Translations under genes and position numbers: made by a program
Notes under the pieces: generated by a model
Seen by the model: the letters and a program-made list of their open reading frames with translations, nothing else
Told to the model about the DNA's origin: nothing
Databases searched by the model: none
NCBI GenBank assembly: GCA_030688545.1
Contig: JAUYHT010000006.1
Location: forward strand, 90,001 to 122,000
Length of the DNA stretch: 32,000 bases
Source of the DNA: Candidatus Iainarchaeum sp.
GTDB taxonomy: Archaea; Iainarchaeota; Iainarchaeia; Iainarchaeales; VGJJ01
Direction of reading: 5' to 3'
In this document: positions 5,933-28,592 of the stretch, piece by piece
How the letters are laid out: each line of letters opens with the position of its first letter
Numbering within the stretch: the first letter of the stretch is position 1

Positions 5933-7504
5933 ATGGAACAAAACTCTCTCTGCTTGATTTCCCCTCCCTCCCGCGCCCATAGCACACGCCCTCCTTTGGG
6001 TTTGATGACCATCTTAGCCTATCTCGAAAAGAATGGGATCCGCACCGAACTGATCGATATCAAAGTGGATGACTTGAAAGTGGTGGAGTTGGGATCTCCC
6101 AGAGCCCAGGAAATAGAGAACCAGATTTTCGACAAGGTTAAACAACTCAAACCCCGCATGATCGGGTTGAGTGCCTATACGCATGAGGTCTCCTATATTA
6201 TCGATTTCGCTAAACGGTTGAAGGAGGTGTGGCCCACGACCATCATTGTGGGAGGTCAGCATGCGTCTTTGGCCCCTCAAGATTTCATTTTCGAAGACAG
6301 CCCAGTGGCATTTGCAGTAATCGGGGAGGGAGAAGAGACCTTTCGTGAGCTATGTCAAACAATCCTGGAGAATAAACCTTCTTCTACCTACGATCACATC
6401 CAGAGTCTCGCGTTCTGGGATGGAACAGTAATGAAAAAGACCCCACTTCGTCCTCTTATCGAACCACTGGATGAGGTTCCCATGCCAGCCTATGATCGGG
6501 TGGATATGGAATTTTATACGCGCCCTCATCCCTACGCCATCCGATACCTTCCCCTTTCCTCAATGTTCGTTTTCGCCAGTCGGGGATGCCCAGCCCGATG
6601 CACCTTCTGTGCCATTCCGTCTGTTTGGCGGTACAACGAGACCAAAAAACCAATTCGTTTCCGTTCTCCGAAAGCCGTGGTGGATGAGGTTGAACACTTG
6701 GTAAAGAAATACAAGGTAGATGCCATTTATTTCTATGATGACGATTTTTGTGTCTGGAAAGAACATGTGATAAAGATCTGCCAAGAATTCATCTCCCGCG
6801 GCCTTCCCTTCGTGTGGGGGTGTGAGACGCGCGTGGATAAAGTGGATGACGAATTAATGGGGTGGATGGCCAAAGCGGGGTGTATTCAGATTGACTTTGG
6901 GGTAGAATCGGGGTCACAAAAGATGCTGGATGCGGTCAACAAGAATTGTAAGGTGGCCGATATCCATACCGCTTTCGATTTATGTAAGAAATATGGCATT
7001 CGGACGTTCGCAAATATGATGTATAATCTTCCCGGCGAGACGGAGGAGGATGTGAAGGCTAATCAGGCACTCATCCAGACTATTCGCCCAACGACCGTTT
7101 CCTTCGGCCTCATGACCCCATATCCTGGAAGTGTCATCTACGATGAATTGTCGGATGGACCTGAGGATTACCACTATTTCAAGGATGCCGAGTGGGTGCT
7201 GCCCAAAAAATTTCAGGTGGCCAAACATGAGATGGATCTCAACAAACTGGTTTCCGAGGACAACATCCGGTACAATAGCCCATTAAGACAATTCGGAAAT
7301 ACCCCAGCGATGGTAAAAGTGTTAGCTCAGGTGATTAGAAGTCGCAGGAAGACTGATTATGCCATGGCAGTCGTCCGATTAGGAAAATTTTTCCTTTTCG
7401 ATCGCATTCCTCGGATGGTGGCCAAAAATGTTTCACCGTATGGAATTCTAGCCAAAAAGGAGGTCATTTCACCCGCATCCCCGACTGAATCCCCCGCTTC
7501 ATGA
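5933..7504 (+). CDS. B12-binding-domain radical SAM protein (RS1)
   Basis: N-terminal Rossmann-type cobalamin-binding domain ('TTIIVGGQHASLAP', 'AVIGEGEETF'). Radical SAM cluster motif 'RGCPARCTFC', then 'IRFRSPKAVVDEV' and 'VESGSQKMLD'. 523 aa. Confidence 0.9.
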   Translation: MEQNSLCLISPPSRAHSTRPPLGLMTILAYLEKNGIRTELIDIKVDDLKVVELGSPRAQEIENQIFDKVKQLKPRMIGLSAYTHEVSYIIDFAKRLKEVWPTTIIVGGQHASLAPQDFIFEDSPVAFAVIGEGEETFRELCQTILENKPSSTYDHIQSLAFWDGTVMKKTPLRPLIEPLDEVPMPAYDRVDMEFYTRPHPYAIRYLPLSSMFVFASRGCPARCTFCAIPSVWRYNETKKPIRFRSPKAVVDEVEHLVKKYKVDAIYFYDDDFCVWKEHVIKICQEFISRGLPFVWGCETRVDKVDDELMGWMAKAGCIQIDFGVESGSQKMLDAVNKNCKVADIHTAFDLCKKYGIRTFANMMYNLPGETEEDVKANQALIQTIRPTTVSFGLMTPYPGSVIYDELSDGPEDYHYFKDAEWVLPKKFQVAKHEMDLNKLVSEDNIRYNSPLRQFGNTPAMVKVLAQVIRSRRKTDYAMAVVRLGKFFLFDRIPRMVAKNVSPYGILAKKEVISPASPTESPAS

Positions 7505-7520
7505 AGGGAATGGGATGAGT

Positions 7521-8195
7521 TCATTTTTTTTCGACCGTGAAGGTGAATCCCGGAGCGAATAGGCTGGGAAATAAACGGCTCAACCATCGCGTGGTCAGGT
7601 TGAATGGCAGATGATAATAGAATAGATCCTCATACTCTCTTACTACCACGAAGCCTCCTTCTTCCAAGAATTTTCTAAATCCATCGCGTGTAAAAAAACG
7701 GACATGTGGAAAATCCCATTCTTCTGCTCCGGGGAACCAGCGTGACACGACCATGTTCCGACCGAATACTATTTGAACACGATCGAGGAGAGTAAATTGA
7801 TTGGGCACATGGGCGTATAATCGCCCTCCTCTCCGGAGGGTACGGTGGATCTCGTCCCGTAATCGATGGGGATGCACCAGATGTTCAAACACGTCTTTAC
7901 AAATGGCATTATCCAACGAAGCACTGTCTAAGGGGATCCTCCCTTCGAGGGAAGTCTGGATCGTCTTTAATCCTCTTTTTTGTGCCTTTATTAAAGCACT
8001 CTCTTGTTCATCAATCCCAATGACAATAAATCGGTCCACGAGCAGGCCTCCAGCGGCACCGCTGCCGCATCCGAAATCAGCGACATTTTTCCCATGCATC
8101 CCTGAAAACCATTCCTTAAGAGACGGTACTAGTTTCTGGGAGGCTCGTTCATCCCGTTCAATATGAGGGGCATATTCCTTCGGATCGAGCGACAT
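7521..8195 (-). CDS. Class I SAM-dependent methyltransferase (MT1)
   Basis: Motif I 'VADFGCGSGAAG', acidic post-I 'GIDEQ' and 'CKDVFEHLVHP'. 224 aa. Its ATG shares base 8195 with the TAA of the upstream GT4 (TAATG). It is convergent with RS1, with only 16 nt between the stops. Confidence 0.85.
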   Translation of the reverse strand: MSLDPKEYAPHIERDERASQKLVPSLKEWFSGMHGKNVADFGCGSGAAGGLLVDRFIVIGIDEQESALIKAQKRGLKTIQTSLEGRIPLDSASLDNAICKDVFEHLVHPHRLRDEIHRTLRRGGRLYAHVPNQFTLLDRVQIVFGRNMVVSRWFPGAEEWDFPHVRFFTRDGFRKFLEEGGFVVVREYEDLFYYHLPFNLTTRWLSRLFPSLFAPGFTFTVEKK

Positions 8196-9283
8196 TATTT
8201 ATTCCTCCATACTTCCAGATATACTTTTTCGACCGCTTTGCCAACTTTTTCCCAGCTCCATACGAAAGAACTGTACGTGGAGGGTGAGGACCGAAGCAAT
8301 TTTATCAATCCTTTTGCAACCTCATCTTTTGAATCAGGATTCCTAATTCCCATGGCAGCGCCATGGGCCACATATTCATGCATAACCCCTTTATCGGCCA
8401 GTAGGATAGGCAATCCGGCCGCGGCGGCTTCCCCGAATACGATCCCTTGGCTTTCCGCATCCGTTAGAAGAGCGAAAACTTTCGCGCTACGAAATAGTTT
8501 AATCAAGCAAGGGCGCTCGGAGAAATGATAAGACCCATGAAATATGACCCTGTTTTCTAATCCTAATCGCCGAGCTTGTTCCTTCAATGCATGTTCCTCC
8601 GGCCCGGTGCCGACGATGTGGAGTTCCGCTTGAGGAATAGAATCTTTCACCATCGGAAGAGCTTCGATAAGCCGGTGCATCCCTTTATTACGAACCAAAC
8701 GTCCAACACTCAAAATTCTCCCCGGCACGGCTTTCCGGGGAACGCGATGAAATTCTTCCACATCGATTCCATTGGGGATGATAATAAACCTCTCCGAAGG
8801 AAGGGGTAGTTTTTGCTTAAAATATTCATATTCCCATTTGGATACGCAGATGACTCGGTCAATCTTATGAGAATAAAATTGGTAGAACCACAGCAAGGGG
8901 AATCGCAATGCTTTTCGTAGCCATGAGGTCGTTCCACTTGAGTTCATGGTGATGATGAGCAATTGACCTTTTTTCTTGGCGAGAATCCCAACAACGCTTA
9001 CGAGATTATTGAACCCGTTACAATGGATTATTTCCCCATCGAATGAAAGAAGGACGGAATAGAGAGCAGGTGAGAAGAAGTAGGTTTCACTGGGCGCGAA
9101 AGCGGGAAACTCATTAATTTGTAATCCTTCGAATACGGTTTTTCTTTCTGGTTTGGGGGCGGTACAGAAAATTTCCACTTTATGTCCTTTGCACTGAAGG
9201 TATTTTCCTATGTGGAGGACATTCTGTTCGATTCCAGCCGCTTCATGCCGGATTGTCCGCGGGCTAAGAAGTGCTATTTTCAT
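8195..9283 (-). CDS. GT4 family glycosyltransferase
   Basis: 362-aa GT-B architecture. 'ILSVGRLVRNKGMHRLIEAL' and 'LLTDAESQGIVFGEAAAAGLPILLADKG' correspond to the GT4 EX7E region. Confidence 0.85.
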   Translation of the reverse strand: MKIALLSPRTIRHEAAGIEQNVLHIGKYLQCKGHKVEIFCTAPKPERKTVFEGLQINEFPAFAPSETYFFSPALYSVLLSFDGEIIHCNGFNNLVSVVGILAKKKGQLLIITMNSSGTTSWLRKALRFPLLWFYQFYSHKIDRVICVSKWEYEYFKQKLPLPSERFIIIPNGIDVEEFHRVPRKAVPGRILSVGRLVRNKGMHRLIEALPMVKDSIPQAELHIVGTGPEEHALKEQARRLGLENRVIFHGSYHFSERPCLIKLFRSAKVFALLTDAESQGIVFGEAAAAGLPILLADKGVMHEYVAHGAAMGIRNPDSKDEVAKGLIKLLRSSPSTYSSFVWSWEKVGKAVEKVYLEVWRNK

Positions 9284-10211
9284 TTACAATATCCCTCCAT
9301 TTTGGAATGGGAATGCGAGATAGCAATAAGAGAGTCAGAATAAATGATAAAGCAATACCGACTCCGCTGTTAAGCGCTCCCACAGCCAATGCGATATCGC
9401 CTGGAACCCCGAATCCTTCTAACAAAACTACGAAAAGTCCTTCCCTTAATCCCAAACCGTTGAAAGAAAGGGGTACCATCCCGATGAGGAGCACCAGACT
9501 CACTATGGAAACCATGACTTCCAAAGGGATGTAAAAGCCTGCCTGCCCTATCAGGAGATGAGCCACCAATGCCTGAGTCAGGAGTCCGCTTCCTACCAAT
9601 CCAATAAAAACGAGCAGTCGCAAGGGGTTTCGTCCGAGTCGCTGTACGAGACCCCCAAATCCAATGAATAATCCCGTATGGTGTCGCAGGATAATTCGTT
9701 TGACTACGTCCCGACCCCTTTTCGTGAAGAATGTCCAGAATGTGACTATTATGAGAATGCCCGCTATCATCAAATAATGTTCTAATCCCCCTACCCATCC
9801 CCAAGTGGCCAAACCGGCAATTCCGAGGCCGAAAGCAAGGGTCACAGTAGATAATTTTGTCAGCATTACAATAGCCGTACTTTGACCGACAGTAACATTT
9901 TCTTTCTTGAGGAAATAAGCAATGGAAAAAGCGCCCAGCTTTCCAGGAAAATAGAATTCGGCTACCCAGCTATACAAGTAATAGCGGAGCATCTTCAGGA
10001 ATGGGATGGGAACCAATCCATTTAGTAGCCACCACCCGTTCAAAGCATTCAATAGGATGATGATTCCAAAACCAGTGGCTGAAATCCCTATCATGAGAGG
10101 CGCCACTCTAATCAATTGCGCAAAGGCTTCAAGAGGTTGTGCATACCAGAAAAGAAATGCCAATAGGATTAGACTGAAACCGATGCGTAATCCTTTTTCT
10201 GAAAATTTCAT
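9264..10211 (-). CDS. Flippase-like polytopic membrane protein (lysylphosphatidylglycerol-synthase TM-region / UPF0104-type)
   Basis: About 8 hydrophobic segments. The C-terminal 'PLSFNGLGLREGLFVVLL' resembles the conserved GxGxxE motif of that family. I prefer ATG 10211 over TTG 10217; it lies 2 nt after the stop of the upstream gene. Confidence 0.55.
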   Translation of the reverse strand: MKFSEKGLRIGFSLILLAFLFWYAQPLEAFAQLIRVAPLMIGISATGFGIIILLNALNGWWLLNGLVPIPFLKMLRYYLYSWVAEFYFPGKLGAFSIAYFLKKENVTVGQSTAIVMLTKLSTVTLAFGLGIAGLATWGWVGGLEHYLMIAGILIIVTFWTFFTKRGRDVVKRIILRHHTGLFIGFGGLVQRLGRNPLRLLVFIGLVGSGLLTQALVAHLLIGQAGFYIPLEVMVSIVSLVLLIGMVPLSFNGLGLREGLFVVLLEGFGVPGDIALAVGALNSGVGIALSFILTLLLLSRIPIPKWRDIVNENSTS

Positions 10212-10213
10212 TT

Positions 10214-11812
10214 TCAATGTTTCACCTGTAACACAAGAATATCCTCACTCCTGTAGATGGGTTCACCCCACCCAAGCAGGGGATTACCTATGAGACGTTC
10301 CTCTGGTCCGATAAAAACATAAGCGATGTTTTCTTCAGCCAAAAAATGGCGCATTTCATTAAGAGATAATCCCCCTGAATAGAATCTCTGCACATCCGCT
10401 TCTTTCGAGCCTCGTTCAAGCGTCTGGTTCCAGTGACCTAAATAGACAATATGATGAGTCATCCATGCGATATTATTTCCCGTCTTGTAGGAGGAAAGGA
10501 CCACCCCCCGTTCAAAAGTGTTCAGAAATTGGATCGCGTCGATCTCACTTTGACTCAAGTAGGGGCCGCTTTGAAATGAAACTTTGGTCACATCGAGGGT
10601 GTGTTGGTATATTACTCCTCCACTAGATGGGAGTGTGGCCAATAGGAATAGAACCCCCAACATCATGGGATTGATTTTAAAGAAATTTCCCCACCGTTTT
10701 CCATCTCTCTCGATGAAAGTTTTCAATCCATTCACTCCCAAGATGACGAGAGGGATAAAAAGTGCGGGTTGGAACCGTAATCCTTTCCAAGGATTCAATG
10801 TTAATATTAGCGCCGCCAGAACCCAACCCCAGAAAAAGGCGCTCTTCCAGTGGTTATCGAATTGAATGTGGCGAATGCCATATAGGGCGAATACGAGGAT
10901 GGCTCCATATCCGATGAACCACCAAAATGGATTTTCACTTCGGAGCCAGCTTCCGTAGCTAAAGAATACGGCCTCAAATACAGCATCCTGGAAGGCCCAA
11001 GCCAGGTAGATAATGATGGGTATCGATGCCAGGACACCAGTGATAGCGATCTTACGGATATGTAGGAAAGTTTCCTTAGTTGGATTGCCTAAAACGGCAA
11101 TTACTATTCCAGCAATTATCACAGGAACATAAGTGATAAAACTGATGGGATGGACAAAGAATAGTAATATTCCCATTATTCCGATGCCAACCAAATACTT
11201 ATTCTGAGATTCATGGATATATCGTAGAAGCAAGAGTAGCATCCCGAGGAAAATTACTTGCCCAGCAATGGCGAGTATGGAAAAGAGGTTTCCAAAAAGG
11301 GAATATCCGAGGGTGTATGTTACATCACTCGAATAGAGTACCGGCAAACCGGAAATTATCCATCGGGCCGCAAGATATACCCATCCCACCCCTCCACCCA
11401 AAGCCGTTACCCCAAAAGCGATGCGTCTCCATTTTTCGTCATGGAAGAAATGGCCTAAAAGATGCCAAACGAGCACCAAGAGCGCTACTCCAAGGAGGGT
11501 GCGCACAAGAGTTAAAGCGAGAGGGATACCGAGTGGGATGGAAATGATTCCGATGACCCAGAACAAAGGAAAAAAGAACCGTCCATCCTGGGGTTCGGAG
11601 GTCATTCGATTGGCGATAAATATGTCGAATGGATTTTCCTGGTAAGAGCGGATGTAGCTCCCATAATAATGAAAATCGTCAATGAAATCGAAACCCATGA
11701 AAATCTGTTGAGGCGGTTCGCTAGAGGCGTATCCTACAAGTAGTGGCACATTGGCTAATAGGATAACTGCCAATGCGAAAATCCAAACTATTTCAGGTGT
11801 CCTGAGTATCAT
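10214..11812 (-). CDS. Large polytopic membrane protein, GT-C-like (candidate lipid-linked-sugar-dependent glycosyltransferase or polymerase)
   Basis: 532 aa with at least 11 hydrophobic helices. An acidic motif 'FDFIDDFHYYGSY' follows TM1 directly, the position of the catalytic Asp motif in GT-C enzymes. A soluble tail of about 130 aa sits at the C-terminus. The family assignment is an inference. Confidence 0.45.
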   Translation of the reverse strand: MILRTPEIVWIFALAVILLANVPLLVGYASSEPPQQIFMGFDFIDDFHYYGSYIRSYQENPFDIFIANRMTSEPQDGRFFFPLFWVIGIISIPLGIPLALTLVRTLLGVALLVLVWHLLGHFFHDEKWRRIAFGVTALGGGVGWVYLAARWIISGLPVLYSSDVTYTLGYSLFGNLFSILAIAGQVIFLGMLLLLLRYIHESQNKYLVGIGIMGILLFFVHPISFITYVPVIIAGIVIAVLGNPTKETFLHIRKIAITGVLASIPIIIYLAWAFQDAVFEAVFFSYGSWLRSENPFWWFIGYGAILVFALYGIRHIQFDNHWKSAFFWGWVLAALILTLNPWKGLRFQPALFIPLVILGVNGLKTFIERDGKRWGNFFKINPMMLGVLFLLATLPSSGGVIYQHTLDVTKVSFQSGPYLSQSEIDAIQFLNTFERGVVLSSYKTGNNIAWMTHHIVYLGHWNQTLERGSKEADVQRFYSGGLSLNEMRHFLAEENIAYVFIGPEERLIGNPLLGWGEPIYRSEDILVLQVKH

Positions 11813-11820
11813 GTAAGTTC

Positions 11821-13356
11821 CTACGCAGAAGCCGTATCGACTTTCTTCCCCAGGATTCCCTTGAATACGGTTAATCCTTCCATGAGTGTTCGTACATCGC
11901 TCAACGACCTAATCCGGACGAATTTCTTGATGAGTATGCGGGGTCGAAGATAGAATTCTCGGAAAGCCTTTTTCTGATATTGGATAAGCGTCTCATAGGG
12001 AATTTGACTCTGTACAAGTAAGGGTTGTTTTGTCCCAAGAGGGATAAATTCTTCCCAAGGTGTCTGGGGGGTAATCAAGCCGCCTTCCAATGAAACAGAA
12101 TACAAATCAGTTCCGGGGTAGGGGGACGTAATGAAGAAAGTGGCGTTATCGATATCCAATTCCTTGGCAAAATTAATCGTGTCCTGCATGGTGTCTTTAG
12201 TTTCTCCAATATTCCCGAGCATAAAAGAAGAATGCACCTCAAATCCATGTTTTTTCATGAGAGCGATTCCACGACGCACTTGGTCCAACCGCAACGATTT
12301 ACGCATTTTATCCAAAACGTCTTGATTTCCGGATTCGATCCCCATACTGATTTGCACGCATCCCGCCTTCTTCATGGCGCGGAGCATGGGTTCAGTAACG
12401 GTATCGGTTCGAGCGAACGCGACCCATTTTGCTCCAAGATTTCGTTGCGCAATCTCCTCACAGACCTCGATGACTCTCTTCTCATTGATACCAAAAAGAT
12501 CGTCCATAAAATTGAATTCTTTCACCCCAAATTCATTGATGCAGTATTCCATCTCATCCGCAACATTCTGAGGAGAACGAAAACGCATTCTTCGTTTCCA
12601 TGTGGTCTTTGAAATGCAATGAATACAATCGAATACACATCCCCGTGAGGTCATGATGTTCATGGTGCTAGAGCTGTTTGATAACTTTTTGGAGGGGGCC
12701 GTGTGGTACCTTGTGACATCAATGAGATCATAGGCCGGAAATGGTATTGTATCCAAATCCTGTATTAACTCGTGCGCTGGGTTCTGCACTGGGTCACCGG
12801 ATCCGCTCTTGAATGCGATTCCTGGAATATCGGAGAAATCATCCCCTCCATCTCGTAGTCTTTGTACCAATTTCCGGATGATCTCTTCCCCTTCCCCTAT
12901 CACAGCGTAATCAACACTGGGATGTTTAACGCATTCCTTCGGGAACACCGTGGGATGCAATCCCCCCCAGACAACAATGGTTTTTGAATTCACTTTCTTT
13001 GCCAAATCGGATATCCTTTGGCAAATATTGACGGTCGGAGTGGGTACTGTGAATGTGACGAAATCAGGTTTGATGGTACGGAGTCGTTCCTCTATCTGAC
13101 TATCGGACAAACCATCTATTTCGCAATCTAAAATAGTCGTTTCGATCCCTGGTACGTATTTCCGGACATACGAGGCTATGTACATGAGCCCTAGGGGCAT
13201 GGCATGCCCACCCGATTCCTTGATTCCGAATGACGTGAGAAATGGGGGATTCAGCAACAGAAATCGTAGGGGGCGTGACACAGAAACCATGGATGAGGAG
13301 TCTGGGGACCGCATGTTAGTTGAATCGGATAAGGAGGGGGCCATATAGCCACACAC
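11821..13356 (-). CDS. B12-binding-domain radical SAM protein (RS2)
   Basis: 'TIVVWGGLHPTVFP', 'AVIGEGEEII', cluster motif 'RGCVFDCIHC', 'MRFRSPQNVADEM' and 'IESGNQDVLD'. Start uncertain: GTG 13356, or ATG 13344, 13314 or 13290. Confidence 0.9.
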   Translation of the reverse strand: MCGYMAPSLSDSTNMRSPDSSSMVSVSRPLRFLLLNPPFLTSFGIKESGGHAMPLGLMYIASYVRKYVPGIETTILDCEIDGLSDSQIEERLRTIKPDFVTFTVPTPTVNICQRISDLAKKVNSKTIVVWGGLHPTVFPKECVKHPSVDYAVIGEGEEIIRKLVQRLRDGGDDFSDIPGIAFKSGSGDPVQNPAHELIQDLDTIPFPAYDLIDVTRYHTAPSKKLSNSSSTMNIMTSRGCVFDCIHCISKTTWKRRMRFRSPQNVADEMEYCINEFGVKEFNFMDDLFGINEKRVIEVCEEIAQRNLGAKWVAFARTDTVTEPMLRAMKKAGCVQISMGIESGNQDVLDKMRKSLRLDQVRRGIALMKKHGFEVHSSFMLGNIGETKDTMQDTINFAKELDIDNATFFITSPYPGTDLYSVSLEGGLITPQTPWEEFIPLGTKQPLLVQSQIPYETLIQYQKKAFREFYLRPRILIKKFVRIRSLSDVRTLMEGLTVFKGILGKKVDTASA

Positions 13357-16749: not shown

Positions 16750-16790
16750 ATCTATATAAACGAACCGATAGACCCATCTTGGTGTACCTT

Positions 16791-18230: not shown

Positions 18231-18231
18231 G

Positions 18232-21867: not shown

Positions 21868-21898
21868 CTTCCTCCCCGGCCTAAAAGCCAGGTATCCA
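21863..21898. repeat. Direct repeat copy 1 (36 nt, degenerate hairpin), overlapping the RS3 stop codon
   Basis: AATGACTTCCTCCCCGGCCTAAAAGCCAGGTATCCA. The first 23 nt are identical to copy 2, which lies 114 nt downstream. Confidence 0.8.
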
Positions 21899-21976
21899 AT
21901 AAAAAAGAATGTCAAAAGGCTGACGAAAATTTTTCGCAAACCTTTTTCAAAAAAGTTTCTTTTCTATGTAGGCCAA

Positions 21977-22013
21977 AATGACTTCCTCCCCGGCCTAAAG
22001 GCCGGGGTATCCA
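21977..22013. repeat. Direct repeat copy 2 (37 nt) containing a perfect 8-bp GC hairpin
   Basis: AATGACTTCCTCCCCGGCCTAAAGGCCGGGGTATCCA. Stem CCCCGGCC (21988-21995), loop TAAA, stem GGCCGGGG (22000-22007). Confidence 0.8.
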
Positions 22014-22047
22014 TGTTGTGCATGAACGTCAATCGGCTCGCGCGATC

Positions 22048-22090
22048 GCTCGCCAAAAACTAGGCGACGTATGTCGCCCTGAAGGGCGAG
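22048..22090. other. Cluster of overlapping or nested GC-rich hairpins (possible RNA element or terminator complex)
   Basis: GGCGAC-GTAT-GTCGCC (22063-22078) shares its 3' arm with TCGCCC-TGAA-GGGCGA (22074-22089). CTCGCC (22049-22054) can pair with GGCGAG (22085-22090), enclosing the first hairpin. Confidence 0.5.
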
Positions 22091-22108
22091 GCATATCACC
22101 TTTTTCGC

Positions 22109-22131
22109 CGGCCTTTTTTCTAAAAAGGCCG
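22109..22131. terminator. Candidate bidirectional intrinsic terminator between convergent RS3 and MT3
   Basis: CGGCCTTTTT-TCT-AAAAAGGCCG forms a perfect 10-bp stem with A/T tracts built into both arms. It lies 16 nt beyond the MT3 stop. It is not a textbook stem plus U-tail. Confidence 0.45.
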
Positions 22132-22146
22132 AGTGAAATATGAGGG

Positions 22147-22902
22147 TCACCTTTTGATTCCGACGGCCAGCATTCCAGTGCAGACATTAGTGGGACCAAC
22201 CCCTATTCGATCCCGATAAAATCGAATCAGACCGATTCGGGCACCGCGTAAAAAAGGGACTCGATGTCGAAAGGGATGTAAAAGAAGAATTAACCGGCGC
22301 CCAGTTTCGAACACCATCCTATTTAGATCCTTTTTCCCATATCCAATGACTTTCACGATTTCAACATGTGGTTTCAACAAATCGATCAATGTCGATTCCG
22401 TGAAATGACAGTAATGCTTGGCCACCAATTCTCGTTTTACGGATGGAACCGTCACGATTAATTTGCCACCGGGATGAATACGGGAAACCACTTCTGTTAA
22501 GAAAGAATTCACATGAGAAGGAGGAATGTGCTCCAATACTTCAATCAGGGTAATGGCATCCCATTTCTTCCTATCAGGAAACTGTTTCAAGGAGCCAACA
22601 TGGAAAAAAACGTGCGGATTGAAGGCGCGGGCGAATGCGATTGCCCGTTCAGAAAGATCAATCCCGGCCAGATTGGAACCCTTGCCGCGCAACTCATAGA
22701 TAAACCGTCCATCCCCGCACCCAATATCAAGCACTTTCTTCCCATGCAATGGAGATAATTCATCTCGGACTAGGTGAAGGTAATCCAAATATTCAATCGC
22801 CCTCAGGGCTTTTTCTTCAGAGAAAAGATCTTCATAATGATATGGAAGGGCATATTCTTCTTCCTGAATGGTCTGTTTATCAATTTTCCCAAGGGAGGTC
22901 AT
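22147..22902 (-). CDS. Class I SAM-dependent methyltransferase (MT3)
   Basis: Motif I 'VLDIGCGDGRF', 'GIDLS' and 'WDAITLIEVLEHIPP'. The ATG at 22902 overlaps the Wzx stop as ATGA and has GGAGGTGG upstream. It is convergent with RS3. Confidence 0.85.
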   Translation of the reverse strand: MTSLGKIDKQTIQEEEYALPYHYEDLFSEEKALRAIEYLDYLHLVRDELSPLHGKKVLDIGCGDGRFIYELRGKGSNLAGIDLSERAIAFARAFNPHVFFHVGSLKQFPDRKKWDAITLIEVLEHIPPSHVNSFLTEVVSRIHPGGKLIVTVPSVKRELVAKHYCHFTESTLIDLLKPHVEIVKVIGYGKKDLNRMVFETGRRLILLLHPFRHRVPFLRGARIGLIRFYRDRIGVGPTNVCTGMLAVGIKR

Positions 22903-24221
22903 AGGTGTCCACCTCCCCGGATACACGCAACTCCTTCTCGAAATATTTTTTTTTCAGATTCCGAAATAAATGAAATATCAGGTCGAATACCCAGTTGCCA
23001 GTGCATATACAGCATTACCCACCCTCCTAATATAAGAAAAGTGATGAGATTCGCCTGCGCTACGCCCAGTGCACCAAACTGTTGGGCGGAAAAGTAATAG
23101 ATGGGAACGGCCATTAAACTGGGAATTAGGAATAGTTTGAAAAAAAAATCCTTCGCAGGAATCTTGGATACGGCCATTGCCGCCCAGGGTCGGGCGATAT
23201 TGAATATCGTCAAACCCCCTACGATATAAATTGAGTATTCAAACACTCGCTCTGGGTGTTCGGGTCCCAAAAGGGATATGAGGAATGTCCCCATTATCAA
23301 ATATCCAATGAGTTGGGAAATGGCCATCAGTGTATTATATCGTATCGCTATCCCGAAAACCTGGGATAATTCTTTTGGAGTTTGAATATCCGAAAAGGTA
23401 AGCGAAAACACCTTCTGGATCATCTGGGGAAAGATAAAGAATACGTTCGCCAATGTCAGCGCCACCGCATAATCCCCAATAGTCGCTAATCCAACGAAGA
23501 AACCAAGGATGAGAATATCAATTTGGTAGACTAGACGTATAACGACGCCCGCCAGGTGATTCCATAATGAGAAACGCATCATGGCTTGAACCGCAGGGCC
23601 AATATCCCATTGATGCATCCACCGAAAATCCAAATGAGAACGGGCGTTCCAATACCACCAACCCACCCCGATAAGGGCCACGATGACTTGCAATGCTCCA
23701 TACACCAATACCTCCCGATGGAAATAAAGAAAGGCCATCGTCAATAACAATAGAATATTAACCACAATATCCACAAATGTAATGCGGGCTTGCCGATAAA
23801 ATCCGTAGAAGGCTTCCCGGAATGGACCATTCAGGCCATTGATGAGGTTCACACCTAGGAGTAGCATGAAGTATATGGACAATCGAGGGTCCTGCTGGAG
23901 CGACTGGATGTAAATGGCTACCGGGATCCCTATTAGGAATAGGAAAATTCCTCGAGCCAGGCTGAATTGGAGAAAAGAATTCATGAATACATTAAGGTTC
24001 TTTTTGATTGTCATGAATTCTCGGATGATAATATTTTCTGGAAGTATCATGAGAATTCCGAATAGGGCCATGTAGCCTCCCGCAAGCCCGATTATGCCTA
24101 TTTCTTCAGTAGAGAGGAGGCGGACGAGAATGGCGAAATTGATGAAACTGATTAGTTTGGAAACGACGGTTTGCATTGTTCCGAATGTGAGCACTGAAAA
24201 CACGCGCTCGAAACGGGTCAT
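22899..24221 (-). CDS. wzx: Wzx-type oligosaccharide/polysaccharide flippase (MOP superfamily)
   Basis: 440 aa with about 12 hydrophobic helices. The N-terminal 'VVSKLISFINFAILVRLLSTEEIGIIGL' is typical of polysaccharide-biosynthesis (Wzx/RfbX) proteins. The ATG at 24221 overlaps the upstream GT4 stop as ATGA. Confidence 0.7.
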   Translation of the reverse strand: MTRFERVFSVLTFGTMQTVVSKLISFINFAILVRLLSTEEIGIIGLAGGYMALFGILMILPENIIIREFMTIKKNLNVFMNSFLQFSLARGIFLFLIGIPVAIYIQSLQQDPRLSIYFMLLLGVNLINGLNGPFREAFYGFYRQARITFVDIVVNILLLLTMAFLYFHREVLVYGALQVIVALIGVGWWYWNARSHLDFRWMHQWDIGPAVQAMMRFSLWNHLAGVVIRLVYQIDILILGFFVGLATIGDYAVALTLANVFFIFPQMIQKVFSLTFSDIQTPKELSQVFGIAIRYNTLMAISQLIGYLIMGTFLISLLGPEHPERVFEYSIYIVGGLTIFNIARPWAAMAVSKIPAKDFFFKLFLIPSLMAVPIYYFSAQQFGALGVAQANLITFLILGGWVMLYMHWQLGIRPDISFISESEKKIFREGVACIRGGGHL

Positions 24222-25351
24222 ATGATAAGACTCCGGTAGAAATGGATCTGTTTTTCGATGATGGTGTTCCATCCAAAGCCGCAGGCGAAATCACGGCATC
24301 TCATACGTTTTTTCTTTAATTCATCTGAGGAAATATTCATCATATCATACAATAATTTACCAGCCTCATCGGGATAATCGAAATTGGTTAGTTTGACCTC
24401 CTTGCATGATGCTGAAAAATTCTCGAATGGAGGAATCTTATTCAATACAGGTATACATCCTGATGCCATGGCTTCGATCGTGGATATCCCGAAACCCTCA
24501 TATTCGGATGCAGAGGCGAAAATCCCGCTTTTCCTATATAGAGCCAAAAGGTTTTCGTCTACCATCTTCCCATGAAACCAAACGAAATCTTCCACCCCTT
24601 CTTCTTTGGCAATTTCTTTCAGTTCGGGCATCAATCCTTCCCAGTCCGCCCCCACGATATGCAATCGCGCACGAGGTTCTCGTTGATAGGCATGCGCAAA
24701 TGCCCGAATGAGATTGTCCACCCGTTTATTCTTGGACAATCGGCCCACAAATAGAATGCTCCTTGGATCCTTTTCCGATTTAAAAGGTTGGAAAAAATCC
24801 TCCTGGACCCCATTAGGAATGAGGTGCGCCTTCCCTCCCTTATTTTCGACGAATGTTTTATCGGAAGGACTGATGGCGATTATTCCGTCAATTTGGCGAA
24901 GGGTGTGGGGGAGAATTATCATCTCATAAATTTGTTTTGGGATCATTCGATTCGCCGTATGATAGAAACCACCGTGCGTGGTGAGGACCAATTTTCCTCT
25001 TATACGGGATTTGTTGCCGCTCCAGGCCATAATATCCAGCCAGGCGCCATATCCATGAACATGAATAATATCCTTATCGAGGGTATGCTTCAAAAATAGT
25101 CTAATTGGCGGGATGGGGTAGAATGTTGGACCCCTTGATGGAACACGATGGATTGTGATCCCGGAATTTTTCTCTAATGGAGACAGCTTTTCTGTCCCGC
25201 GGGGACAGGTATTGAACACTATCACTTCTACGCGATGTCCATTAGCCGCTTGGCGGGTAGCCGTTTCCCAGATAACTTTCTCAATTCCCCCTATACAAGG
25301 AAAGGTATGGTTTCCCACATGGAGGATGCGTAGTTTTTTTCCTTGGCTCAT
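24218..25351 (-). CDS. GT4 family glycosyltransferase
   Basis: 'LRILHVGNHTFPCIGGIEKV', 'ILFVGRLSKNKRVDNLIRAF' and 'IFASASEYEGFGISTIEAMASGCIPVLNK'. The ATG at 25351 overlaps the upstream GT2 stop as ATGA. Confidence 0.9.
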   Translation of the reverse strand: MSQGKKLRILHVGNHTFPCIGGIEKVIWETATRQAANGHRVEVIVFNTCPRGTEKLSPLEKNSGITIHRVPSRGPTFYPIPPIRLFLKHTLDKDIIHVHGYGAWLDIMAWSGNKSRIRGKLVLTTHGGFYHTANRMIPKQIYEMIILPHTLRQIDGIIAISPSDKTFVENKGGKAHLIPNGVQEDFFQPFKSEKDPRSILFVGRLSKNKRVDNLIRAFAHAYQREPRARLHIVGADWEGLMPELKEIAKEEGVEDFVWFHGKMVDENLLALYRKSGIFASASEYEGFGISTIEAMASGCIPVLNKIPPFENFSASCKEVKLTNFDYPDEAGKLLYDMMNISSDELKKKRMRCRDFACGFGWNTIIEKQIHFYRSLII

Positions 25352-26337
25352 GCCCACACCTTTTCATCCAAAAAACCCCGGATCATGCCCGTGGCGAAGG
25401 CAATGGACCGGAGGAAGTAAAGGCCGAAGGCGATGGCAACAAAATGAATCCCGTGTCTCCAGATATGGGGGATGGAAAAAAGGAATGTGAATACGTAGGC
25501 GAGGGCACTCACGCGGACCCAGAAGGTATAGTCCGGAATGGGAATCGAAATTAGAGCGAAAAATAGAATTCCAAGTGAAAAGGCCACATTGAATTTGAGC
25601 ATGGTAGGAGTATAACTGTCCTGCACCGCTTTACGGGGGTGCTTGAGATACATGCGCATACGCCAATAGGCCCGCACGTGTTTCACGTGAATATACCTTT
25701 CGACTGTATCCGGGTGGGAATGGTAAACAATGGCCGCCGGATTGAATACCAGTCGATACCCTTTTTCAGATAACCGGTAGGAAAATTCCGCGTCCTCTCC
25801 CGAAGCGCGGGGAAAATGTTCATCGAATCCCCCATGGGAAAGGAAAATGTCTTTTCGGTAGGCCGCGCTGTAGCTCCCGATCCAATCCAGGAAAGATGAG
25901 CGCTTCATCTTCTCATAGCGAAATTCAATATCCGCTTGGTCAAATCGGGCCACCAGGGACTTTTGATGAGTACGGTAAGCCCCTTGCACGCCCGCCACTT
26001 TCTCATCGATGAATGGTTTCACCATTTCAGCCAACCAATTCTTTTCAGGGACGCAGTCGCTGTCCAAAAAAACAATGATTGGATTTTTTGATTCCCTTGC
26101 CCCCTTATTCCGTGCTTTAGCCGGTCCTTGATTTTCCTGCGAAATCACTCTCACCGATCGATATGATTTAGCCATTTCAGGGGTTCCATCCGTACTCCCG
26201 TCATCCACCACGATGATTTCATCCGGGGACAAGCTTTGTTCTTGAAGCGCATCCAGGCATGCCCGCAGCGTCCTGGTCGCGTTGTAGGCAGGAATGATGA
26301 CGGTGGCCGGGGGGACTATTTTTTTTCGGGACACCAT
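25348..26337 (-). CDS. GT2 family glycosyltransferase with C-terminal membrane segment
   Basis: 'ATVIIPAYNATRTL', 'IIVVDDGSTDGT', 'QGPAKARNKG' and 'VFLDSDCVP' (DxD). The hydrophobic C-terminus reads 'FNVAFSLGILFFALISIPI...FVAIAFGLYFL'. Confidence 0.9.
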   Translation of the reverse strand: MVSRKKIVPPATVIIPAYNATRTLRACLDALQEQSLSPDEIIVVDDGSTDGTPEMAKSYRSVRVISQENQGPAKARNKGARESKNPIIVFLDSDCVPEKNWLAEMVKPFIDEKVAGVQGAYRTHQKSLVARFDQADIEFRYEKMKRSSFLDWIGSYSAAYRKDIFLSHGGFDEHFPRASGEDAEFSYRLSEKGYRLVFNPAAIVYHSHPDTVERYIHVKHVRAYWRMRMYLKHPRKAVQDSYTPTMLKFNVAFSLGILFFALISIPIPDYTFWVRVSALAYVFTFLFSIPHIWRHGIHFVAIAFGLYFLRSIAFATGMIRGFLDEKVWA

Positions 26338-26360
26338 GCGATAACCTGGTTGCGTGAATT

Positions 26361-26383
26361 AAAAACGGATTGGATACATCCGT
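26361..26383 (-). terminator. Weak intrinsic-terminator-like hairpin inside the operon, just after RS4
   Basis: The - strand reads ACGGAT-GTATCCA-ATCCGT followed by TTTTT. It starts 14 nt after the RS4 stop. The 6-bp stem is only modestly stable. Confidence 0.3.
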
Positions 26384-26396
26384 AGAATGATTCCCT

Positions 26397-27923
26397 TTAT
26401 GGGGTGTTAAAGAGAGCCGTTCGTTGGTTGGTCTCGCCAAGAGAGGGTTTAGCCTGCGATTCAAATAGATATTTGAAAAAGGTCCTCCCACTCTTCATCA
26501 GACGCGGAAATTCATGAGGCGTGGTAATACCCTCCCATATCTTGGCGGCGATGAAAGTAGGCCGCATGTAAAAGTTTCGCCGTGCGTCATCACAGGCCTG
26601 CACCAATTCTTCCGCAGTAAGCTGATCCGTACTCACAATCGTGTTGTGCGTGCCATCCTCTAACAGCCAGTTCTCCCAATTTTCAGCTTTGATGGTGAGA
26701 AAATTGTTGGTTTTCGCCCACTCATAGGCTTCCGTTCCCGGATACACCATGATGGGGAAGAATTGCACCGTGTCGGGATTGACTTTCTTGGCAAACTCGA
26801 CTGTCTTCTCAATCGTTTCGTGTGTTTCGCCCCGGTTCCCCATCATGAAGCACGCATGAACGAGCACGTTGGCTTCTTTGGTGTCGTTGAAGAATTGTTC
26901 GATCTTCTGGACATTCGTCCCTTTCTTGATGTTATTGAGTATTTCCTGGGTCGCGCTCTCCACTCCCACGCATACCAATCGACACCCGGCCTTTTTCATG
27001 ATTTTCAATGTTTCCAGGTCCACGTCACAGCGAGCGTTTACCGTCCAGGTGACTTGGAGTCCACGATCGATGACCTCCTGGCAGATATCCTTTACCCGGT
27101 TCTTATCCAAAGTAAAGGTATCATCCTCGATCATGATATCCTTCACGTAAGGGAGGTTGTGTTTCACCCATTCGAATTCGTCCACGATGTTCTTCACCGA
27201 GCGCGAGCGAAAAATGTGACCGGTAAAATTCTGCGGCCAATCGCAAAAGGTACACCGGAAGGGGCAGCCTCGGCCCGTCATAATGGTAACCTCTGGGTAT
27301 AGCACGGAGGGGTAAAAGTAATCACGGATGTTAAGATGTTCCGCCCAGACCTGCGAGGCGAACGGGAGTTTATCCAGATAGTCCGAGGGGACATCGGGGG
27401 CGTCCTCATTCTGGATGATGTTCCCTTGGCCGTCCCGGAAGGTAATGCCTTTCATCTTCTCATACGACGTCCCCTTTTCCAAATGGCCAGCTAATTCTAC
27501 CGCCGTGAGATCGTATTCGCGTCGGAGTACCATATCGACGGCCGGGGCGATGGTTAAAGTATTTCCGGACACCGCCGATACGTGCGGCCCCACCATCGCA
27601 ATGACAATTTCCGGATATTCTTGCTTGATGGCGGCCGCGACTTTGGCATCATTCACCACGGATGAGGTGACGGTGTGCATGATCAATAGTTTGGGTTGGA
27701 ATTCCTTTACAACTTCGATCACTCGCTCGATGGACATCACGTCCTTGGAGGCAGTGGCGTCCACCAGCTTGGTACGATGACCATTCATCTCAAGGGAACC
27801 AGTGGCATAGCCAAGGAATATGGGGTAATACACGCACCCTCCCTTGCTCACGGCCGGGCTGCGCGAGTTTTTTGAAAACTGGGGAAAGTATGGCGGATTT
27901 AGCAATAATACGTTGATGCCCAT
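26397..27923 (-). CDS. B12-binding-domain radical SAM protein (RS4), divergent subtype
   Basis: 'MGINVLLLNPPYFP', 'IVIAMVGPHVSAVS', cluster motif 'RGCPFRCTFCDWPQ', 'IFRSRSVKNIVDEF' and 'VESATQEILN'. GAGGT lies 6 nt upstream of the ATG. It lacks the 'GEGE' block shared by RS1-RS3. Confidence 0.9.
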   Translation of the reverse strand: MGINVLLLNPPYFPQFSKNSRSPAVSKGGCVYYPIFLGYATGSLEMNGHRTKLVDATASKDVMSIERVIEVVKEFQPKLLIMHTVTSSVVNDAKVAAAIKQEYPEIVIAMVGPHVSAVSGNTLTIAPAVDMVLRREYDLTAVELAGHLEKGTSYEKMKGITFRDGQGNIIQNEDAPDVPSDYLDKLPFASQVWAEHLNIRDYFYPSVLYPEVTIMTGRGCPFRCTFCDWPQNFTGHIFRSRSVKNIVDEFEWVKHNLPYVKDIMIEDDTFTLDKNRVKDICQEVIDRGLQVTWTVNARCDVDLETLKIMKKAGCRLVCVGVESATQEILNNIKKGTNVQKIEQFFNDTKEANVLVHACFMMGNRGETHETIEKTVEFAKKVNPDTVQFFPIMVYPGTEAYEWAKTNNFLTIKAENWENWLLEDGTHNTIVSTDQLTAEELVQACDDARRNFYMRPTFIAAKIWEGITTPHEFPRLMKSGRTFFKYLFESQAKPSLGETNQRTALFNTP

Positions 27924-27992
27924 GAGTTACCTCGTGAATACTGAACGAGTTTCTTTCAGTTTAAAAGGATAGTTACCATTTCGATATTTGTC

Positions 27993-28592
27993 CTATCCTT
28001 TCGTCATCATTCGATTGCGCGCTATTTTCCGTGCGATCACCACCATCTGCTCTCGCAGGGAATCCGGGAAAATATGATGGATTGTTTTCCGGATAGGAAA
28101 AAACCATTTGTGCGTGGCCCCGTCGGACGATTCTTCCGTATAGGGAAAGAAAACCATCTTTTGAATGGTGAATCCTCCTTGTTCCAGAAGCCCCCTTATT
28201 GAAACCGGGTCGAACAGTGATAGGTGAAGCGGCATCTCATAAGAGTGGGTGATGCGGTTGAGCCAGCTTTTTTGGTTGGGGGTGGAGAGGGCAAGTACGC
28301 CATTGTGTTCCAGCACGCGCCAGCATTCATCGATGAAAGCTTTCGGGTTCGCCACATGTTCGATAACTTCCCCCGCAAGAATACTATTGAAAGAACGATC
28401 TTCGAATGGCATTCGCTGACCGTCCCCCAATACTTGATTCGTGCGCACGTGAATGAGCTCGATGTCCAAGGAAACGATTTGGCTATCGGGAAACCGTTTC
28501 TTCAGCTCGTCATGCAGGGTTCCCGCACTCCCCCCAATATCAAGAACTTTCCCCGATAACGAGGCCAGCAATGTGTCGATGCGATTACGCAT
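27993..28592 (-). CDS. Class I SAM-dependent methyltransferase (MT4)
   Basis: Motif I variant 'VLDIGGSAGTL', 'SLDIE', 'FNSILAGEVIEHVANP' and 'GVLALSTPN'. 199 aa. It lies immediately upstream of RS4. Confidence 0.8.
   Translation of the reverse strand: MRNRIDTLLASLSGKVLDIGGSAGTLHDELKKRFPDSQIVSLDIELIHVRTNQVLGDGQRMPFEDRSFNSILAGEVIEHVANPKAFIDECWRVLEHNGVLALSTPNQKSWLNRITHSYEMPLHLSLFDPVSIRGLLEQGGFTIQKMVFFPYTEESSDGATHKWFFPIRKTIHHIFPDSLREQMVVIARKIARNRMMTKG

Follow-up and report, generated by a model that had tools for sequence, protein, structure and literature searches.

B12-binding radical SAM and methyltransferase genes side by side, probably as separate tailoring genes, in a putative N-glycosylation island of a DPANN archaeon

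Introduction

In Haloferax volcanii, Halobacterium salinarum and Methanococcus, the genes for protein N-glycosylation form Agl clusters around aglB. These clusters include methyltransferase tailoring of the AglP type. Here we describe a 32,000-nt stretch of DNA (the window) from Candidatus Iainarchaeum sp. (contig JAUYHT010000006.1), in which four genes for B12-binding radical S-adenosylmethionine (SAM) enzymes (RS1 to RS4) each adjoin a gene for a class I methyltransferase (MT1 to MT4). The locus shares with the Agl clusters the grouping of genes by AglB/STT3, an AglJ-like glycosyltransferase (GT) of family GT2, a Wzx-type flippase and nucleoside diphosphate (NDP)-sugar genes, as well as proteins with the (alpha/alpha)-toroid fold, represented in Halobacterium by an epimerase of glycan uronates (VNG1058H, PMC12624080). 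It differs from them in its eukaryote-like Alg7, Alg13 and Alg14 homologues, its four B12-domain radical SAM genes, its four to five methyltransferases and its uncultured DPANN host.

Several other described systems resemble parts of this locus. In the HpnI/HpnK/HpnJ pathway to bacteriohopanetetrol cyclitol ether, the substrate of HpnJ is a lipid-linked amino sugar (PMC9204698). RS4 aligns with HpnJ over the full length and is directly followed by a GT2 gene, whereas its score lies below the family cut-off, the host is archaeal, a hopanoid context is absent and RS4 is linked to RmlA-like, dehydratase-like and methyltransferase genes. No HpnI or HpnK signature was found at the locus with NCBIfam models, the GT2 beside RS4 matching HpnB only (1.5e-7). 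GenK, GenD1, Fms7 and MoeK5, which are Csp3 methyltransferases (PMC12931638), share with RS1 to RS4 the combination of a B12-binding and a radical SAM domain; their targets are carbons of sugars, and class I N- or O-methyltransferases are present in the same pathways. In contrast to the locus described here, they make secondary metabolites and not cell-surface glycans, and no specific sequence relationship to them was seen, the top NCBIfam matches of the RS proteins being BchE, HpnJ, ApyD and Sden_1168, all far below cut-off. AprD4, the radical SAM diol dehydratase of apramycin biosynthesis, acts on an aminoglycoside sugar and is the best match of the RS profile among solved structures, but this match spans the radical SAM half only (profile positions 191-453) and the NCBIfam scores of the RS proteins against AprD4 are 65-123 bits at a cut-off of 500. 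Lastly, Gtr-type three-component modification employs a polyprenyl-phosphate-sugar GT2, a flippase and a GT-C enzyme. Similar elements are found here in two GT2s, which have C-terminal transmembrane segments and resemble dolichyl phosphate (Dol-P)-hexose/ArnC-type synthases, in an LPG_synthase_TM protein, and in two large multi-pass membrane proteins whose first transmembrane segment is followed by an acidic motif. The GT-C nature of the latter two (u532 and u483) is conjectural, and radical SAM and methyltransferase genes are interleaved in the locus, unlike in Gtr-type systems.

An original prediction, made from the sequence of the window, had read the eight genes as a two-gene tailoring module deployed four times, and had stated that no characterised polysaccharide pathway is known to be built in this way. 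The latter statement agrees with two reviews of B12-radical SAM enzymes, which make no mention of polysaccharides or glycans (PMC12931638, PMC9204698). Further, our literature searches on radical SAM enzymes with AglB/N-glycosylation or DPANN found no description of class B radical SAM enzymes in cell-surface glycan or glycosylation loci, and the term 'radical SAM' was not found in the archaeal N-glycosylation literature searched. As for the module, a cassette copied four times is only partly supported by the data presented below; the RS and MT genes are probably separate sugar-tailoring genes that stand side by side in this locus. The window itself is, on balance, best taken as the larger part of a gene island for protein N-glycosylation or a surface glycan in a DPANN archaeon (Candidatus Diapherotrites). 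The island is unusually rich in tailoring genes, with the RS and MT proteins as distinct tailoring enzymes in it.

Radical SAM and methyltransferase genes of the window

The four RS and the four MT open reading frames (ORFs) were recovered at most a few codons away from the positions originally given for them. Together with their closest neighbours they are arranged as follows (window coordinates, strand, description):

5933-7504, +: RS1, B12-binding radical SAM enzyme (Pfam); terminal gene of a short + strand unit
7521-8195, -: MT1, class I methyltransferase (Pfam); convergent to RS1
8195-9283, -: GT4_a, glycosyltransferase of the GT4 family (Pfam)
10214-11812, -: u532, unannotated multi-pass membrane protein with a C-terminal soluble domain (nine stretches in a hydropathy scan)
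11821-13356, -: RS2, B12-binding radical SAM enzyme (Pfam)
13400-14083, -: MT2, class I methyltransferase (Pfam)
14076-15824, -: u582, soluble protein with a predicted toroid plus beta-sandwich fold (AlphaFold2 (AF2) and Foldseek)
15796-16749, -: GT2_b, AglJ/Dol-P-hexose-transferase-like GT2 with C-terminal transmembrane segments (hydropathy scan)
20443-21867, +: RS3, B12-binding radical SAM enzyme; terminal gene of a + strand unit
21868-22146, no strand: structured intergenic region between RS3 and MT3, with a 24-nt exact direct repeat and GC-rich hairpins
22147-22902, -: MT3, class I methyltransferase (Pfam); convergent to RS3
22899-24272, -: Wzx-type flippase (Polysacc_synt_3; Pfam)
24218-26337, -: GT4_d (24218-25357) and GT2_c (25348-26337) (Pfam); with MT4, a conserved operon core in other DPANN genomes
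26397-27923, -: RS4, HpnJ-like B12-domain radical SAM enzyme (Pfam, TIGR03471)
27993-28592, -: MT4, class I methyltransferase (Pfam)
28596-30301, -: NDP-sugar set B, an RmlA-like nucleotidyltransferase and an NDP-glucose 4,6-dehydratase-like protein

The RS proteins are 474-523 aa long; the NCBI product of RS3 has 474 aa, which places its start at 20443 and not at 20410. In hmmsearch, all four exceeded the Pfam gathering thresholds both for the B12-binding domain PF02310 (73.2, 81.5, 73.9 and 41.0 bits for RS1 to RS4; threshold 32.1) and for the Radical_SAM domain PF04055 (81-90 bits; threshold 29.5). Every motif string quoted in the original prediction was found in the translations, and the cysteines of the CxxxCxxC motif (C240, C244 and C247) are invariant in a four-way alignment. 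Likewise, MT1 to MT4 (199-259 aa) all scored above gathering for Methyltransf_11/23/25 and carry a glycine-rich motif I, in the variant form DIGGSAG in MT4. A search of all ORFs of at least 70 aa with hidden Markov models (HMMs) of the two families found no extra member, so that within the window no RS or MT is unpaired. This completeness ends with the window, as a fifth, unpaired methyltransferase gene lies about 1.3 kb beyond its end.

The RS genes had been called paralogous. They do share their families, but are merely 25-32% identical among themselves, and closer relatives of each were found in other phyla than among the RS of the window. RS1 has relatives of 41-48% identity elsewhere, including in a Deltaproteobacteria metagenome-assembled genome (MAG), while RS3 orthologues of 66-77% identity occur in several DPANN phyla, including genomes labelled Micrarchaeota (locus L089) and Aenigmarchaeota (locus L090), and RS4 orthologues of 42-82% identity occur at loci L020, L093, L014, L067 and L090. 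MT1 to MT4 are 26-32% identical, with the similarity confined to the SAM-binding core. The four RS are thus old, separate subfamilies and not copies. A recent tandem duplication of the cassette was considered and rejected, since the identities are too low and each RS is closer to relatives in other organisms.

Partner genes adjoin directly, no ORF of at least 100 aa lying between them. Two of the four pairs are convergent: RS1 and RS3 lie on the + strand and MT1 and MT3 on the - strand, and the + strand units ending in RS1 and RS3 meet long - strand operons ending in MT1 and MT3. Being on opposite strands, the members of these two pairs are not transcribed together. RS and MT share the same direction in pairs 2 and 4 only, where the MT lies 5' of the RS. 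The gaps between MT and RS measure 16 nt (pair 1, convergent), 43 nt (pair 2), 279 nt (pair 3, convergent) and 69 nt (pair 4). On its other side, each MT is closer to a further gene: the start of MT1 overlaps the stop of the upstream GT4 gene by 1 nt, that of MT2 overlaps the u582 stop by 8 nt, that of MT3 overlaps the flippase stop by 4 nt (ATGA), and MT4 begins 3 nt past the stop of the upstream nucleotidyltransferase gene. For every MT, the coupling to this upstream gene, which is not an RS, is thus closer than that to the RS.

At the 279-nt spacer of pair 3, a 24-nt sequence (GACTTCCTCCCCGGCCTAAARGCC) is repeated exactly and in direct orientation at 21866 and 21980; its first copy begins at the RS3 stop codon. 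The spacer folds strongly (z = -5.1) into GC-rich hairpins. In the syntenic locus L093 the corresponding spacer is only about 10 nt long, and the spacer in the window therefore looks like a lineage-specific insertion or duplication.

Gene order in other genomes

We then compared the order of these genes in related loci. Wholly syntenic with the window are L082-L085 (RS1 68-72%, RS2 76% identity) and L093 (RS3 77%, RS4 81%), which are uninformative on pairing. A different picture emerged from L086, L088 and L092, which lie on contigs of 830-840 kb and have the order RS3 (72%) <-> GT2_b > u582 (48%) > MT2 (49%) > u532 (35%) > RS1 (48%) > RS2 (54%). Here MT2 touches no RS, the MT1 orthologue is absent and neither RS1 nor RS2 stands beside an MT, so that at 48-54% identity the RS1 and RS2 orthologues have no adjacent MT. 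RS3 orthologues of 68-72% identity in L088, L089 and L090 gave the same result (MT adjacent in none of the three), their neighbour being a flippase gene or a gene for an unannotated membrane protein of similar size. Overall, the adjacent MT is missing for RS3 orthologues in three of the four other genomes, and a 42% identical RS3 homologue in L094 also lacks it.

Genes of the two families were also found on their own. L020 encodes three RS, one of them an 82% identical RS4 orthologue, and an HMM search of its 15.2 kb detected no MT even at E<=10; the RS4 of this locus has an upstream promoter-like AT-rich spacer and a divergent gene. Conversely, MT4 (43%) occurs in L089 together with GT2_c and GT4_d and without RS4. 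An RS1-like gene (42%) in L095 lies between a DegT aminotransferase gene and a UDP-GlcNAc 2-epimerase gene in an NDP-sugar operon, and in L096 an MT gene stands directly 5' of an RS1-like gene (43%). Beyond the wholly syntenic relatives, then, the adjacency implied by the original prediction is not conserved: RS3 shows it in none of three loci, RS1 and RS2 lack it in L086, and RS4 shows it at three loci but not in L020.

Two side observations concern the RS genes in these comparisons. RS3, at 66-77% identity across DPANN phyla, is far more conserved than GT4_d (32-49%), GT2_c (44-56%) or the flippase (28-60%), and it lay within the same glycan gene cluster in every locus examined (L088, L089, L090 and L093), a pattern that suggests either a conserved core role or a recent horizontal spread. 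Further, u532 clusters with RS genes in L082, L085, L086 and L020.

u582 as the conserved neighbour of MT2

MT2 is accompanied from genome to genome by u582: in L082, L085 and L086 the two genes adjoin without a change of order, and two 789-aa u582-MT fusion proteins (P0315 and P0352) have their parts in the order seen in the window. From these comparisons, the conserved partner of MT2 is u582 and not RS2. The u582 family is unannotated and gave 706 matches at E<=1e-10, of about 560 aa and 43-60% identity, across DPANN, Omnitrophota, Eisenbacteria and Peribacteria.

An AF2 model of u582 built on a 54-sequence alignment reached a predicted local distance difference test score (pLDDT) of 91 and a predicted template modelling score (pTM) of 0.92. 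Foldseek matched it to polysaccharide lyases of families PL33, PL8, PL17 and PL15, to heparinases II and III and to human dermatan sulfate epimerase 1, with probability 1.00 and template modelling scores of 0.41-0.53 (structures including 8r70, 1rw9, 2e22 and 6hzn). We are therefore confident that u582 is predicted to fold like uronate lyases and C5-epimerases, with an (alpha/alpha) toroid and a beta-sandwich. A hydropathy scan found no hydrophobic segment and no signal peptide was seen at the N-terminus, so u582 is read as cytoplasmic. From the model we infer that u582 is a putative uronate-acting, lyase-like enzyme or epimerase that would act with MT2. A toroid-fold epimerase has a precedent in an archaeal N-glycan pathway, VNG1058H (PMC12624080), although that protein is smaller than u582 and cellobiose 2-epimerase-like.

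Relationships and possible chemistry of RS1 to RS4

As far as is known, the class B methylases that have been characterised draw on SAM and cobalamin without the help of another methyltransferase, which speaks against an MT as a necessary companion of each RS. Most annotated class B enzymes seem to be methylases (PMC9204698), and the nearest characterised relatives of the window RS act on sugars, in keeping with the original prediction. RS4 is nearest to HpnJ: it scored 417.9 bits against TIGR03471 over model positions 3-469 of 472, at a cut-off of 577.6, and RS2, RS3 and RS1 followed with 208, 156 and 148 bits. The best match to the BchE model TIGR02026 was RS2 with 234 bits, below the cut-off of 481. 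RS1 to RS3 can be placed only in a broad BchE/HpnJ/ApyD neighbourhood, far below every NCBIfam cut-off. Membership of the HpnJ or BchE families was rejected on the grounds of these scores and of the gene context, which is the wrong one. By sequence, the closest solved relative of the RS profile is AprD4 (6fd2, E=1.8e-40), followed by 9ccb, OxsB, TokK, TsrM and CysS (9n1b, E=4e-15).

The cobalamin contacts of OxsB, TsrM and TokK comprise a Gly-Gly on beta4 and a Gly-Glu at the start of alpha5 (PMC9204698). Both motifs are canonical in RS1 (VGGQH and GEGEE) and RS2 (WGGLH and GEGEE), and these two enzymes are likely to use B12.

An alternative is that the RS are not methylases, some of them perhaps being B12-independent, and carry out radical rearrangement, dehydration/deoxygenation or epimerisation of sugars, like the ring contraction of HpnJ or the diol dehydration of AprD4, with the MTs as unrelated decorators. 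DPANN genomes usually lack cobalamin synthesis, which would fit. So would the full-length, 418-bit match of RS4 to HpnJ, the loss of the Gly-Glu motif in RS4 and the degenerate Gly-Gly in RS3 and RS4, and the position of AprD4, the best PDB match, which is marked as 'unrelated' (orange) in a network of B12-radical SAM enzymes (PMC12931638). Nevertheless, RS1 and RS2 retain Gly-Gly and GEGE, all four RS pass the PF02310 threshold, class B enzymes with an annotation are apparently methylases for the most part (PMC9204698), and the AprD4 scores of the RS lie under their BchE and HpnJ scores. We regard a set of non-methylases as unlikely.

A further alternative is that the RS modify the lipid carrier or membrane lipids, that is, the isoprenoid chains of dolichol or archaeol, in the manner of the B12-radical SAM enzymes that modify hopanoids and glycerol dialkyl glycerol tetraethers. 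Lipid-modifying class B enzymes are well documented (PMC13459092, PMC11214058). A gene for a Dol-P-hexose-synthase-like GT2 lies before RS1, the genes for a membrane protein and the LPG_synthase_TM protein come after RS2, and the conservation of RS3 far above that of its GT neighbours fits an unvarying substrate. Against this, a hydropathy scan predicted no transmembrane segment in any of the four RS, the RS1-like gene of L095 sits in an NDP-sugar operon, RS4 follows a nucleotidyltransferase and a dehydratase-like gene, and all loci are glycan and not lipid loci. We consider action on lipids very improbable.

Several B12/radical SAM genes at one locus are common. Within about 20 kb, seven were counted in L033 (a MAG labelled 'bacterium') and five in L005 (a Methanocellales MAG). 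In addition, four giant proteins of 1,879-2,331 aa (P0377, P0384, P0402 and P0414) each gave four separate B12/radical SAM unit matches and are apparently tandem multi-RS proteins.

Separate genes or a two-gene module

According to the original prediction, an RS and its MT form a functional module, used four times at one sugar or position per pair, with the MT possibly an obligate partner. We therefore looked at RS homologues at large. A genome scan with the RS alignment yielded 80 loci, spread over many phyla of archaea and bacteria and none of them above 37% identity, and a metagenome scan with RS3 yielded 3 loci only. By HMM, 12 of 120 RS genes had an MT within 300 bp, a measure that overstates adjacency as gene ends cluster at short gaps. 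It was replaced by a Pfam census by gene rank, in which the immediate neighbours of 70 focal RS genes were compared with the genes three and four positions away. The adjacent slots (n=124) held Glycos_transf_2 in 10 cases, Radical_SAM in 10 and Methyltransf_11 in 8 (6.5%); the control slots (n=138) held Methyltransf_11 in 4 (2.9%) and GT2 in 4. GT2 is thus at least as enriched beside RS homologues (10 against 4) as MT is. In a locus as rich in MTs as the window (4 of 29 genes), about 26% of genes are expected to have an MT neighbour by chance.

A number of observations weigh against separate genes and the chemistry that we ascribe to them. When four RS and four MT were permuted among 29 genes in 200,000 trials, all RS fell beside an MT in 0.27% (p~0.003), and a perfect one-to-one pairing arose in 0.08%; the four-out-of-four adjacency in the window is real and non-random. 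RS4 and MT4 adjoin in L014 (RS4 75%), L067 (58%) and L090 (42%), with the order swapped in the latter two, and adjacency that survives an order swap is a classic sign of functional linkage. A 790-aa protein of a Candidatus Omnitrophota MAG (P0032) is an MT-RS fusion, made up of an N-terminal class I MT (best match MT1, 28%) and a B12/RS enzyme (best match RS1, 37%). The neighbour census, in which the MT excess fell short of significance (8/124 against 4/138, odds ratio 2.3, Fisher p=0.24), is of low power and uses crude ORF calls. Bootstrapped quartets, also of low power, placed RS at 13|24 in 55% and 12|34 in 45%, and the MTs at 13|24 in 80%. These topologies are compatible, RS support being weak, and RS and MT may therefore have diverged together; an earlier impression of incongruence, gained from bit scores, was dropped on this account. 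Finally, the cobalamin motifs deviate in RS3 and RS4: the corresponding positions read VGAAH and KEGED in RS3 (Gly-Gly deviating) and MVGPH and RREYD in RS4 (Gly-Gly deviating, Gly-Glu lost). Use of B12 by RS3 and RS4 is uncertain, in RS4 because the Gly-Glu motif is replaced and PF02310 scores merely 41 bits.

Taken with the comparative data, the points in favour of a module are the adjacency in the window (p=0.003), the preservation of the whole arrangement in the close relatives L082-L085 and L093, the RS4-MT4 adjacency through an order swap, the P0032 fusion and the MT directly 5' of the RS1-like gene in L096, the rank of MT as third commonest neighbour family of distant homologues, and the compatible quartets. 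On the other side stand the convergent pairs 1 and 3, the tighter coupling of all MTs to non-RS genes, the RS3 orthologues without an adjacent MT in three of four other genomes, with RS1 and RS2 likewise in L086, the RS-only and MT4-only loci (L020 and L089), the adjacency and fusion of MT2 with u582, and the non-significant 2.3-fold enrichment. The MT-RS fusion appears real but rare: its MT part had no other match among the best 150 50%-identity clusters retrieved by HMMER from 1.84 billion representatives. The P0032 locus is bacterial and a GT4-rich glycan locus that also holds an MT-GT4 fusion. Fusions of MT with glycosyltransferases were found in this Omnitrophota locus (MT-GT4, L091 1421-3160) and in a Deltaproteobacteria locus (MT-GT2-like, L032 8459-9994), so fusion of an MT to an adjoining glycan enzyme is not RS-specific.

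We conclude that a module used four times is not borne out and is unlikely, and that RS4-MT4 is the sole pair that may be functionally linked. An MT as obligate RS partner is contradicted, and was rejected, because orthologous RS-only and MT-only loci exist. Partnership is poorly predicted by adjacency at one locus that is rich in MTs, and the comparative data shift attention to the u582-MT2 and MT4-GT2_c pairs.

For the co-directional pairs, above all MT4-RS4, a sequential chemistry can be envisaged. CysS acts on a methoxy group. As the O-methyltransferase and then CysS do in cystobactamid biosynthesis, the MT would O-methylate a sugar hydroxyl and the RS would methylate the methoxy or a nearby carbon, giving O-ethyl or branched alkyl ethers. 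The order MT then RS in pairs 2 and 4 and the same domain order in P0032 agree with this, and CysS, an iterative class B methylase (PMC12931638, PMC9204698), is among the PDB sequence matches. The order is, however, RS then MT in L067 and L090, RS4 has no MT in L020, RS4 is nearest to the non-methylase HpnJ, and no CysS-specific feature was seen (E=4e-15 against 1.8e-40 for AprD4). Such a sequence has, in our estimation, a very slight chance of being correct.

The probable N-glycosylation island around these genes

RS1 is identical to MDP2666529.1 and RS3 to MDP2666541.1, two NCBI entries from a 446-kb contig of a MAG named Candidatus Diapherotrites archaeon. The glycan-locus setting of the pairs given in the original prediction was confirmed, the window holding GT2 and GT4 glycosyltransferases, NDP-sugar genes and flippases. 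In full, there are two RmlA-like nucleotidyltransferases, a dTDP-glucose 4,6-dehydratase and a second dehydratase-like short-chain dehydrogenase/reductase; five GT4/GT1 genes, two AglJ/Dol-P-hexose-transferase-like GT2s, one further GT2 and an Alg13-like/GT2 fusion; and a Polysacc_synt_3 flippase, an LPG_synthase_TM protein and the unannotated u532 and u483 (membrane) and u582 (soluble).

The window truncates this locus at its downstream end. Contig L001, which overlaps the window exactly, extends the locus beyond position 32000 and encodes, at L001 62-4584 (about window 31719-36241), Alg14, an AglH/Alg7-like GT (Glycos_transf_4), the fifth class I methyltransferase and AglB/STT3. AglB is the product of a 732-aa STT3/AglB_core gene about 2 kb past the window end, and the fifth methyltransferase (259 aa) has no RS partner and is convergent to the adjoining AglB gene. 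With these genes the locus is most likely an archaeal N-glycosylation island: as in agl clusters, AglB/STT3 lies within it, together with initiating and elongating GTs (Glycos_transf_4, Alg14 and the Alg13-like/GT2 fusion). From this make-up, an N-glycan would be the final product.

Our preferred reading, separate RS and MT tailoring genes in an N-glycosylation island, draws on domain families, locus context, gene orders, fusions and the fold of u582, all obtained from the data. The pathway would run as follows. The two RmlA/RmlB-type sets would activate sugars, enzymes of the AglH/Alg7 and Alg13/14 types would start a dolichol-linked glycan, which the GT4 and GT2 enzymes would lengthen, the Wzx-type flippase would flip it and AglB would transfer it to protein. 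Extra decoration from dolichyl-phosphate sugars is probable, for which the two AglJ-like GT2s, the LPG_synthase_TM protein, u532 and u483 are candidates. The MTs would add ordinary O-, N- or carboxyl-methyl groups, each with a different upstream gene (GT4, u582, flippase or nucleotidyltransferase), while the RS would perform radical C-H chemistry on sugars, most likely C-methylation of NDP- or lipid-linked sugars as in GenK, GenD1, Fms7 and MoeK5; RS4 may rather perform a ring rearrangement of the HpnJ type. The four-for-four adjacency would then come from tailoring genes being packed densely into sub-operons with many MTs. Substrates, individual RS reactions, the dolichyl-phosphate branch and the N-glycan as end product are what we infer in this scheme, the first two being also a point against it.

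Should the RS indeed modify the glycan, cobalamin-type radical chemistry would be known for the first time in a protein-glycosylation pathway, and the sugar units predicted from it (C-methyl, branched or carbocyclic) would be new to N-glycans. It would also imply a large untapped pool of enzymes, as each RS has homologues in the glycan loci of numerous uncultured phyla, some loci holding five to seven, and would tie DPANN envelope biogenesis to an externally supplied vitamin. On a wider scale, we tentatively suggest, as a possibility below even odds, that B12-type radical SAM enzymes are a widespread, hitherto uncharacterised glycan-tailoring class in the surface-glycosylation loci of uncultured anaerobes with small genomes (DPANN, candidate phyla radiation and Omnitrophota). 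Here they would equip a dolichol-linked N-glycan with sugars that are C-methylated, branched or ring-contracted (carbocyclic), and the surface would depend on cobalamin scavenged from a host or community.

Other features of the window

The remaining genes of the window are:

49-1214, -: split glycosyltransferase, made up of a 131-aa N-terminal ORF (819-1214) and a 256-aa GT1 C-terminal ORF (49-819; Pfam Glycos_transf_1)
1300-2687, + and -: two ORFs of 204 aa (+) and 239 aa (-) without Pfam or NCBIfam match, between the split GT and the RmlA/RmlB pair
2963-4767, -: NDP-sugar set A, dTDP-glucose 4,6-dehydratase (3727-4767) and RmlA-like nucleotidyltransferase (2963-3823)
4881-5912, +: AglJ/dolichyl-phosphate-hexose-transferase-like GT2 with C-terminal transmembrane segments, directly 5' of RS1 (TIGR04182 AglJ, 143 bits, below cut-off)
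9264-10217, -: flippase-like membrane protein of the LPG_synthase_TM family (PF03706, 73 bits), about ten overlapping hydrophobic stretches
16779-18230, +: u483, unannotated multi-pass membrane protein with seven hydrophobic stretches; weak NCBIfam matches to the LA_3751/2 putative GT family and AZOBR_p60025
18232-20426, +: GT4_b and GT4_c, two glycosyltransferases of the GT4 family (Pfam)
30316-32000, -: Alg13-like/GT2 fusion (30316-31722) and Alg14, from its start at 31719 to the window end (NCBIfam and L001 gene table)

An Rfam search of the window gave no match. For u532, neither Pfam, even at E<=10, nor NCBIfam gave a match, and the profiles of u532 and u483 matched no PDB sequence and no Pfam family at E<=10. 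Both proteins have conserved acidic motifs just past the first transmembrane segment (FDFIDDFHYY and IDEHEY), which are GT-C-like. They are possibly GT-C-type transferases; a single-sequence AF2 model of u483 reached a pLDDT of 45 and a pTM of 0.25.

In NDP-sugar set A, the dehydratase scored 443 bits against TIGR01181, above the cut-off of 365, and the nucleotidyltransferase 207 bits against RmlA models, below cut-off. The split-GT arrangement at the start of the window is kept in L082 and L085 at 72-86% identity, and it is therefore read as a two-subunit glycosyltransferase and not as a pseudogene.

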